Shown: positions 27,042 through 27,216 of the stretch, one piece after another
Numbering within the stretch: the stretch's first letter is position 1
How the letters are laid out: each line of letters starts with the position of its first letter
Assembly (NCBI RefSeq): GCF_037042905.1
Contig: NC_087250.1
Location: 25,980,001-26,044,000, forward strand
DNA length: 64,000 nucleotides
Direction of reading: 5' to 3'
Origin: Lytechinus pictus
Taxonomy: Eukaryota
The notes under the pieces: generated by a model
The model's input: only the letters and a program-made list of their open reading frames with translations
Databases searched by the model: none
Told to the model about the DNA's origin: nothing
Translations under genes and position numbers: made by a program

Positions 27042-27216
27042 GTGTGTGTGTGTATTTGAGTATTGTCAGACGTGTATCAATAAGATATGATTATTTACGT
27101 CTGGGACCGACCTTTAACGTCACCATCCGAAACACGTGACAAGGGCTCGAACCTCTGCATCAATTAATAACTTTCCCACATAGCTTGGATTACAGGTGCA
27201 CGCCACAACGCCCAGT
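27042..27216 (-). mobile_element. 7SL-RNA-headed SINE, copy 1
   Basis: Minus strand begins ACTGGGCGTTGTGGCGTGCACCTGTAATCCAAGCTATGTGGGA, then GGTTCGAGCCC, core ttcggatggtgacgttaaaggtcggtccc and a (CA)n tail; TSD tagcat/tagtat (27036-27041, 27217-27222). Confidence 0.8.

Follow-up and report, generated by a model that had tools for sequence, protein, structure and literature searches.

A probable 7SL-headed SINE family in the Lytechinus pictus (sea urchin) genome

The window, by which is meant the whole 64,000-nucleotide stretch of DNA analysed here (C6:25980001-26044000), belongs to an 812-Mb assembly of 368 contigs. It carries two insertions of one SINE of ca. 185 bp, both on the minus strand, at 27042-27216 and 40714-40898. 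Other mobile elements are found alongside them. An uninterrupted open reading frame of 915 amino acids at 47705-50452 (minus strand) encodes a LINE protein with endonuclease and reverse-transcriptase domains, the closest database proteins being 92% (partial) and 66% (full-length) identical, and an AAATCT-type repeat is located at the 3' end of this LINE, near 47150-47200. At 9314-10408 (plus strand) a 364-amino acid open frame corresponds to a Tc1/mariner-type transposase (DDE_3, HTH_Tnp_Tc3_2). Among the 42 open reading frames of the window that were scanned, no host gene was recognisable.

The host had been taken for an invertebrate in the original prediction, which was made from the letters of the window, and the genome identifies it as an echinoid: the Pfam Bindin model scores 236.7 bits (E 1.5e-67) on one exon and 53.1 bits on a second, while Bindin was found in 0 of 14 control genomes. 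The corresponding two-exon Bindin gene (53 and 237 bits) is located at C13:14344741-14346105 (L061/L062).

The window copies and their insertion sites

The two copies align with each other from end to end at 88% identity over 182 columns, and each is ca. 95.5% identical to the majority sequence of the family (ca. 95.4% for copy 1 and ca. 95.7% for copy 2), with 8 mismatches apiece. Copy 1 is full length (27042-27216, minus strand) and opens with a head at 27170-27216 that corresponds to the Alu 5' domain of 7SL RNA, with helices 2-4 and the UGUAAU motif at 27189-27194. This is followed by a B-box-like GGTTCGAGCCC (27143-27153), the body motif GTCACGTgTTTCGGATGGTGACGTTAAAGGTCGGTCCC (27103-27140), a 3' stem-loop of the form CAGACGT ... 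ACGTCTG (27067-27103), whose fold was computed on the equivalent module of L086, and the tail ACTCAAATA(CA)n (27042-27061), all on the minus strand. Copy 2, also full length (40714-40898, minus strand), is a member of a subfamily with a duplicated B-box. Its head occupies 40852-40898, with UGUAGU at 40871-40876, and the duplicated B-box region GGTTCGAGGTTTGATCCCC (40817-40835), the same body motif as in copy 1 (40778-40815), the 3' stem-loop (40742-40778) and the tail ACTCAAATACATA(CA)n (40714-40736) follow on the same strand.

The original prediction described two insertions of ca. 180 bp, with 6-bp target site duplications (TSDs) and (CA)n tails, and the sites themselves bear this out. CAAATT borders copy 2 at either end (5' at 40899-40904 and 3' at 40708-40713, minus strand), and four paralogues of its host repeat (L021, L070, L065 and L088) carry the uninterrupted site, ..ATCAAATTCATC.., which is direct proof that copy 2 is a true insertion with a 6-bp duplication. 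Two filled sites of this repeat were found, namely window copy 2 and L052, with L023 being ambiguous. Copy 1 is housed inside a tandem array of 111-114-bp units, and as the intact units read TTGAATAGCATGG.., the duplication is TAGCAT/TAGTAT on the plus strand, a match of 5/6; on the strand of the SINE this corresponds to ATACTA on the 5' side (27217-27222) and ATGCTA on the 3' side (27036-27041).

The two insertions had also been described as independent. When the 6-kb neighbourhoods of the copies were compared, the SINE was the sole match, demonstrating that the insertion sites are unrelated, and to this extent the description stands; it is qualified, however, by filled paralogous sites elsewhere, which exist for both copy 1 (L033, L051) and copy 2 (L052). 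The SINE of L052 and window copy 2 differ in their subfamily markers, which hints that the target was hit more than once or that changes accrued afterwards.

The host satellite of copy 1 (units of 111-114 bp) extends over 27405-27870 of the window in addition to the flanks of the copy, and is also present in L033, L051 and L096. Satellite units elsewhere harbour full or 37-nt truncated SINE inserts at about the same point of the unit, between ..CATG and YTATTCAA.., which suggests either a preferred target or the spread of filled units. The host of copy 2 is a dispersed repeat of at least ca. 480 bp (window ca. 40300-41300), with further members in L021, L023, L052, L065, L070 and L088, the paralogues being 76-93% alike.

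The 7SL-derived head

Host 7SL genes were collected with the Rfam metazoan SRP model, with which 25 of ca. 6,077 candidates were scored. Among these 25 are seven full-length 7SL genes, located on C1, C10 and C12 and scoring 272-283 bits, and 18 partial matches at 32-35 bits, of which the three inspected (L008-L010) are copies of the SINE. For the C10 gene the 7SL RNA opens with ACCGGGCGTTGTGGCGTGCGCCTGTAATCCAGCTACTTGGAGGT; the SINE copies open with ACTGGGCGTTGTGGCGTGCGCCTGTAATCCA(A)GCTA.., their first base coinciding with that of 7SL RNA, the start being ACTGGGCG in the SINE and ACCGGGCG or ACTGGGCG in 7SL. Alignment of the head with the C12 7SL gene (L007) gives 42 identical columns out of 46 (ca. 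91%) for L008, and 41 out of 46 for the older subfamily L091. The family majority is identical to the C10 gene in 34 of 36 columns, with a score of 60; in 500 shuffles the mean score was 15.3 (sd 2.4) and the maximum 25. Judged by this control, the similarity between the head and 7SL is far above chance expectation.

Model position 44, which closes helix 2, is exactly where the 7SL match stops. The consensus-like copy L009 aligns to positions 1-44 of the SRP model at 32.5 bits (E 3.8e-7), UGUAAU being present and helices 2-4 all paired, and L091 scores 28.9 bits (E 1.2e-5) over the same positions, likewise with the three helices paired and UGUAAU present. The window copies are mutated and attain only 11.3 bits (copy 1, positions 1-44) and 7.2 bits (copy 2). 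For both of them the top Rfam match is mir-1268, at 29.2 bits (E 9.5e-4) for copy 1 and 24.8 bits (E 0.013) for copy 2, which we take to be Alu-derived.

By sequence comparison the head is shown to be 7SL-derived, with its first base equal to the first base of 7SL RNA, and when read against the SRP model it comprises the Alu 5' domain of the host 7SL in its entirety (46 nt), containing helices 2-4 and the UGUAAU turn. Derivation from this domain was the central claim of the original prediction, which had named the Rfam SRP model and the species' own 7SL gene as checks, and both come out in its favour. In addition, the head contains bases that are specific to urchin 7SL, such as GCGUUG in place of gcgcgg in the Rfam consensus, pointing to a local origin and arguing against contamination or descent from a vertebrate element. 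Since these are the urchin's own 7SL variants and not vertebrate ones, an origin independent of Alu, which had also been proposed, is supported at the level of the head.

The first bases of the C12 gene (L007) are ACT, and its helix 2 has ..GGAAGT at the 3' strand. The resulting ACU/AGU pair of helix 2 was considered as a compensatory change of the SINE and rejected because this host 7SL paralogue has it; the pair is inherited from a C12-type 7SL gene and consequently gives no evidence of selection on the SINE fold. From position 45 to its end, the SINE has no similarity to the full host 7SL (score 15, reached by 320 of 500 shuffles), and as this is no better than shuffled sequence the 3' 7SL segment is absent. 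An alignment by eye of the B-box region to internal 7SL was not upheld by this shuffle test.

The surroundings of the 7SL genes have features of their own. In L001-L005, which are 7SL loci of C10 and C1, a B-box-like GGTTCGAGTC is positioned 15-45 nt past the 7SL terminator within flanks that otherwise differ. The downstream box of L001 and L005 forms a perfect T-arm-like hairpin, CCTGGTTCGAGTCCAGG, and the C12 gene (L007) is without the box, which may be a TFIIIC site of sea urchin 7SL genes. Within the tandem C10 cluster, an older SINE in the same orientation ends 33 nt upstream of each gene (L001 1291-1467, L005 1295-1467 and L006 1316-1467), with a second SINE copy further upstream in L001; the SINEs of the cluster may represent one insertion, later duplicated with the gene.

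Downstream modules, copy number and partner LINE

The original prediction gave the order of the element as head, B-box, body and tail, the sequence leaving 7SL after the head, and this description holds: the head is followed by a linker (..TTACAAATTGATGCAGA..), the B-box, the body motif, the stem-loop and the (CA)n tail. The B-box, GGTTCGAGCCC, is doubled as GGTTCGAGGTTCGAGCCC in 34 of the 64 distinct full-length copies. It had been termed tRNA-type, which is correct for the motif but does not extend to tRNA similarity, none being found among the Rfam matches with E up to 1-10 (both window copies, L009 and L091) or by ARAGORN in L009, L019, L091 and L095. The term therefore stems from the B-box, and the tRNA-like features comprise only this motif and a weak T-arm-like context.

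The body motif of the family, GTCACGTCTTTCGGATGGTGACGTTAAAGGTCGGTCCC, lies in a stretch that may be part of a conserved SINE domain of the Deu/Nin-DC kind. The pattern GTCACG..TCTTTCGGATG..AC.TTAAA..GGTCCC, including the body motif of copy 1, matches by eye the BivaMD-SINE1 lines in the available portion of the PMC4824008 supplement, a comparison with those lines rather than with a domain consensus. The family stem-loop, CAGACGT..ACGTCTG, is succeeded by the tail ACAAAACTCAAATA(CA)n. For the last ca. 100 nt a two-part stem-loop with an unpaired tail behind it is predicted at -25 kcal/mol (z -2.69; 3 of 200 shuffles reach such an energy), and this structure has the usual look of an end recognised by a LINE. 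TTTT is absent from the majority sequence, which is what a Pol III unit transcribed on into its flank would be expected to show.

Genome-wide, the 32-nt head is found in exact form at 415 places; when up to 3 mismatches are allowed, the head is found at 1,354 places and a 35-nt word of the body at 1,522, the reversed-pattern controls giving 0 in each case. Near-consensus copies number about 1,350-1,520 and are located on all large contigs; copies are present on C1-C19, the best being 95-97% identical to window copy 2. The 64 distinct full-length copies have a mean identity of 97.6% to their majority, a value that overstates the youth of the family as the sample, taken from best-hit lists and exact-word sampling, is biased to young copies. 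Older layers include the L091/L092 subfamily at ca. 86% and L095, which is strongly decayed yet headed, and the subfamilies share diagnostic changes. A second sample was picked by its body, from 20 places on C1 with the exact body word and without the exact head nearby, a choice biased against heads; 17 of its 21 elements are headed, 1 is cut within the head and 3 start at ..TCTTTCGG. The junction between 7SL and body is identical in the 64 distinct full-length copies and in the 17 headed elements of this body-picked sample.

Retroposition has left its typical signatures on the family, comprising TSDs, a defined 5' end (ACTGGGCG) and a 3' simple-repeat tail. Exact TSDs of at least 5 nt are present in 8 of 26 evaluated copies, compared with 5.0% for mismatched flanks (n=1,256), a further 20 of 46 copies having been left out as array members or by a failed boundary rule. 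Many 5' flanks end in CA or ACA, hence the (CA)n tail probably conceals a portion of the duplication, which fits microhomology priming. A SINE family whose copies share their 5' start and carry TSDs had been anticipated, and this is what the genome contains. With a length below 1 kb (ca. 185 bp) and an interspersed distribution, the element has the size and dispersal by which SINEs are delimited in SINEBase (PMC3531059, available portion).

Headless, tail-only copies of ca. 110 nt (L086-L088 and L093; also L053 and L056) contain the body motif, the stem-loop and the tail. They start at or a few bases before GTCTTTCGG, with unrelated DNA upstream, and the type was met at 72 places in a filtered scan; RNA processing and a separate short element are possibilities for their common 5' end. 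Head-to-tail arrays of 2-4 SINE copies, joined via their (CA)n tails, occur in L009, L016, L017, L024, L033 and L038 (e.g. L038 1147-1854).

The original prediction had proposed looking for a LINE with the same 3' tail, which the searches did not yield. Three genome pattern scans for a SINE-type tail, excluding the SINE's own upstream bases, returned 72, 28 and 25 places with no recurrent LINE-like upstream sequence, no open reading frame of at least 150 aa was present upstream of two other headless copies, and a low-stringency BLAST of the tail module against 327 kb of collected loci gave nothing new. Several candidates were rejected. In the window LINE (APE and RT; 47705-50452 on the minus strand) the 3' end is formed by a repeat of AAATCT type in place of (CA)n. 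Four places on C6, considered as a LINE-tail group, are the 37-nt SINE tail inside the host satellite of copy 1. In L064 an element with RT and RNase H lies beside a SINE-type tail; 19 other copies of the element finish with (AAC)n, after which comes unrelated DNA, and its (CA)n tail in L064 is thus a separate insertion. The family of this element (L064 5059-7374 and ca. 20 loci, L066-L085) has open reading frames with reverse-transcriptase and RNase H domains and ends ..GAAGAGCGCCATCATATTC(AAC)n; its copies are 87-95% alike, and SINE or SINE-tail insertions adjoin the (AAC)n tail in L027, L032 and L064. For sea urchin SINEs with conserved bodies, CR1/L2-type partners are listed in the table of PMC3747384 (available portion), and by analogy the partner of the present family is probably a stringent LINE of the CR1/L2 kind.

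Origin and relation to known SINEs

With high probability, the element constitutes a composite non-autonomous retroposon (SINE) family of the sea urchin. In the mechanism proposed here, RNA polymerase III would transcribe the SINE from the A-box region in the 7SL head together with the B-box GGTTCGAGCCC ca. 50 nt downstream, and a stringent LINE would recognise the 3' stem-loop and (CA)n tail and copy the RNA into CA-rich sites by target-primed reverse transcription. A look-up of sequencing runs listed none from RNA, and the runs of two organisms contained only a SINE-sized share of the words. Through binding of SRP9/14, the head may place the RNA at ribosomes that translate the LINE. The family may have been born when 7SL RNA was joined to the body and tail of an older SINE, template switching being one possible route; chimera formation has been proposed as the origin of the hagfish SINE1 (PMC7245038, available portion). 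A search by B-box and body pattern for a tRNA-headed relative with the same body returned 94 places, 93 belonging to the 7SL-headed family and the last (L095) being an old headed copy.

The benefit drawn from the head can be read in another way, in which a piece of promoter with an A-box and a defined 5' end was captured by chance and SRP9/14 binding is irrelevant to the spread of the family, a reading to which we give a little less than an even chance. The 5' domain alone was kept, while the 3' 7SL segment (helix 5), retained by all other 7SL SINEs, is missing, and the helix-2 covariation originates from a 7SL paralogue and not from the SINE; furthermore, with its own B-box and a stringent-type LINE tail the RNA would not need ribosome docking to reach reverse transcriptase. 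Against this, the 3' strand of helix 2 is precisely where the captured piece stops, so that the piece is a complete folding unit and not an arbitrary length, and helices 2-4 with the U-turn are intact in subfamilies that differ elsewhere. The isolated human 7SL 5' domain also suffices for SRP9/14 binding. The composite origin, for its part, could have been reached without a tRNA-SINE ancestor if an internal deletion of a 7SL gene had brought its 5' domain up to a B-box situated shortly beyond the gene's 3' end. This we consider improbable. Five 7SL loci (L001-L005) do have GGTTCGAGTC 15-45 nt beyond the terminator, and the SINE middle aligns to 7SL flank with scores of 14-25 where shuffle means are ca. 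12.5, the best pairs being reached by 0-2 of 300 shuffles; however, the likeness consists in essence of the B-box motif, the score of L008 is attained by 21-120 of 300 shuffles, and the C12 gene, source of the SINE's head variant, is without a downstream box.

It is very unlikely that the copies, instead of being members of a self-propagating SINE family, are repeated, independent chimeric retrocopies, each formed by a LINE reverse transcriptase that began on a tail-bearing RNA and then changed template to 7SL RNA. Template-switch chimeras of small RNAs are indeed known (PMC7245038, available portion) and tail-only copies of ca. 110 nt exist (L086-L088, L093), but independent switches would vary the junctions and give full-length 7SL parts, whereas the same 7SL/body junction is found in all headed copies inspected (64 full-length; 17 of 21 body-sampled), never with more than 46 nt of 7SL and in subfamilies that share diagnostic changes. 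Scarcely credible, and already contradicted, is an ordinary tRNA-derived SINE (SINE2) with a 7SL likeness due to chance or to convergence of Pol III promoters. Its perfect B-box GGTTCGAGCCC in a T-arm-like context would suit such an element, and the sea urchin SINEs named in the available portions of PMC4824008, PMC4758252 and PMC3747384 are all tRNA-class; nevertheless 42 of 46 columns agree with a host 7SL gene from the same first base, the score of 60 compares with a shuffle maximum of 25, and neither Rfam (E up to 1-10) nor ARAGORN gave a tRNA match. A 7SL-headed SINE family of an echinoid is, in our judgement, very probably the correct description.

Published accounts are cited in the following for their available portions. 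Well-defined 7SL SINEs are attributed to Euarchontoglires only, with the hagfish as a new finding, by Kojima 2020 (PMC7245038), and the available text of a 2026 BMC Biology article (PMC13023118) adds the shrew mole and otherwise reports none outside supraprimates and hagfish. According to the latter, all 7SL SINEs arose after a central deletion of ca. 183 nt, with 5' and 3' segments kept. A search of the literature, as distinct from the entries of Repbase, Dfam and SINEBase, found no invertebrate 7SL-derived SINE. The urchin family is apparently the first 7SL-headed SINE described outside vertebrates, and it may sit in a library under a tRNA label. It has the 7SL-derived 5' head known from SINE1 and is without the 3' segment, SINE1 being known to have both. 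The SINEBase threshold is an overlap of 60 nt or more with tRNA, 5S or 7SL RNA at 60% identity or higher (PMC3531059), compared with ca. 91% over an overlap of only 46 nt here; an overlap of 60 nt or more is, like the 3' segment, common to all known SINE1 members.

Like the hagfish SINE1-1_EBu (PMC7245038), the urchin element consists of a 7SL-derived head fused to other retroposon parts, ends in a simple repeat and not poly(A), which would imply a stringent non-L1 LINE partner, and appears to have arisen independently of Alu and B1, with a few thousand copies at most. Unlike it, the urchin element has the 46-nt 5' domain only, whereas the hagfish SINE keeps 5' and 3' 7SL around a central deletion; the tail is (CA)n, in contrast to the RTE-derived (AAC)n tail of the hagfish, and the host is an invertebrate. 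Alu, B1 and FLAM-PB1 of supraprimates and Urop of the shrew mole (PMC13023118) share with it the 7SL 5' start, the A-box region, helices 3 and 4, the U-turn and a B-box ca. 50-70 nt downstream, all being Pol III-type SINEs, the urchin element by prediction. They are made of 7SL only (5' and 3' parts after the deletion of ca. 183 nt), with poly(A) and L1, whereas the urchin element is without a 3' 7SL part, contains body and tail modules of foreign origin, and takes its head from the 7SL of the urchin itself. Tree-shrew Tu types I/II and bushbaby GarnAlu (PMC7245038) are likewise composites, of a 7SL part and tRNA-class SINE parts, but they descend from a single supraprimate 7SL SINE and are L1-dependent; the urchin element differs in its separate origin and in a non-7SL part without detectable tRNA similarity. 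Finally, SINE2-1..8_SP, SURF1/SP-4 and SP-5 of sea urchins (PMC3747384, PMC4824008, PMC4758252) share the host group and the arrangement of a conserved body, a candidate one in the family described here, followed by a LINE-type stem-loop tail, a CR1-type partner being given for the DeuSINE SINE2-3_SP in the same sources. These families are described as tRNA-headed, and as they are set apart here by their descriptions, one of them could be the same family under a tRNA label.

A wider reading is offered tentatively, and we think it unlikely on balance: the family would represent a further independent birth of a 7SL-headed SINE, the first outside vertebrates, in which nothing of 7SL was kept but the 46-nt Alu 5' domain, its smallest part that folds by itself. 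This domain alone, through putative SRP9/14 binding and the ribosome, would then be the useful part, and its benefit would reach SINEs of stringent non-L1 LINEs in an echinoderm.

In practical terms, the Alu-like head trips human-sequence filters and Alu-derived models, and can mislead repeat masking and contamination screens of echinoderm genomes. 7SL RNA is a very rare source of SINEs, each new case being treated as notable convergent evolution (PMC7245038, PMC13023118; available portions), and an echinoderm case would show that the 7SL route is open to invertebrates. A family that spread with the Alu 5' domain only, without helix 5, amounts to a natural deletion experiment, through which the value of 7SL to a SINE as promoter, in RNA stability or in SRP9/14 and ribosome docking could be tested, and this in a system with a putative sequence-specific LINE and not L1.
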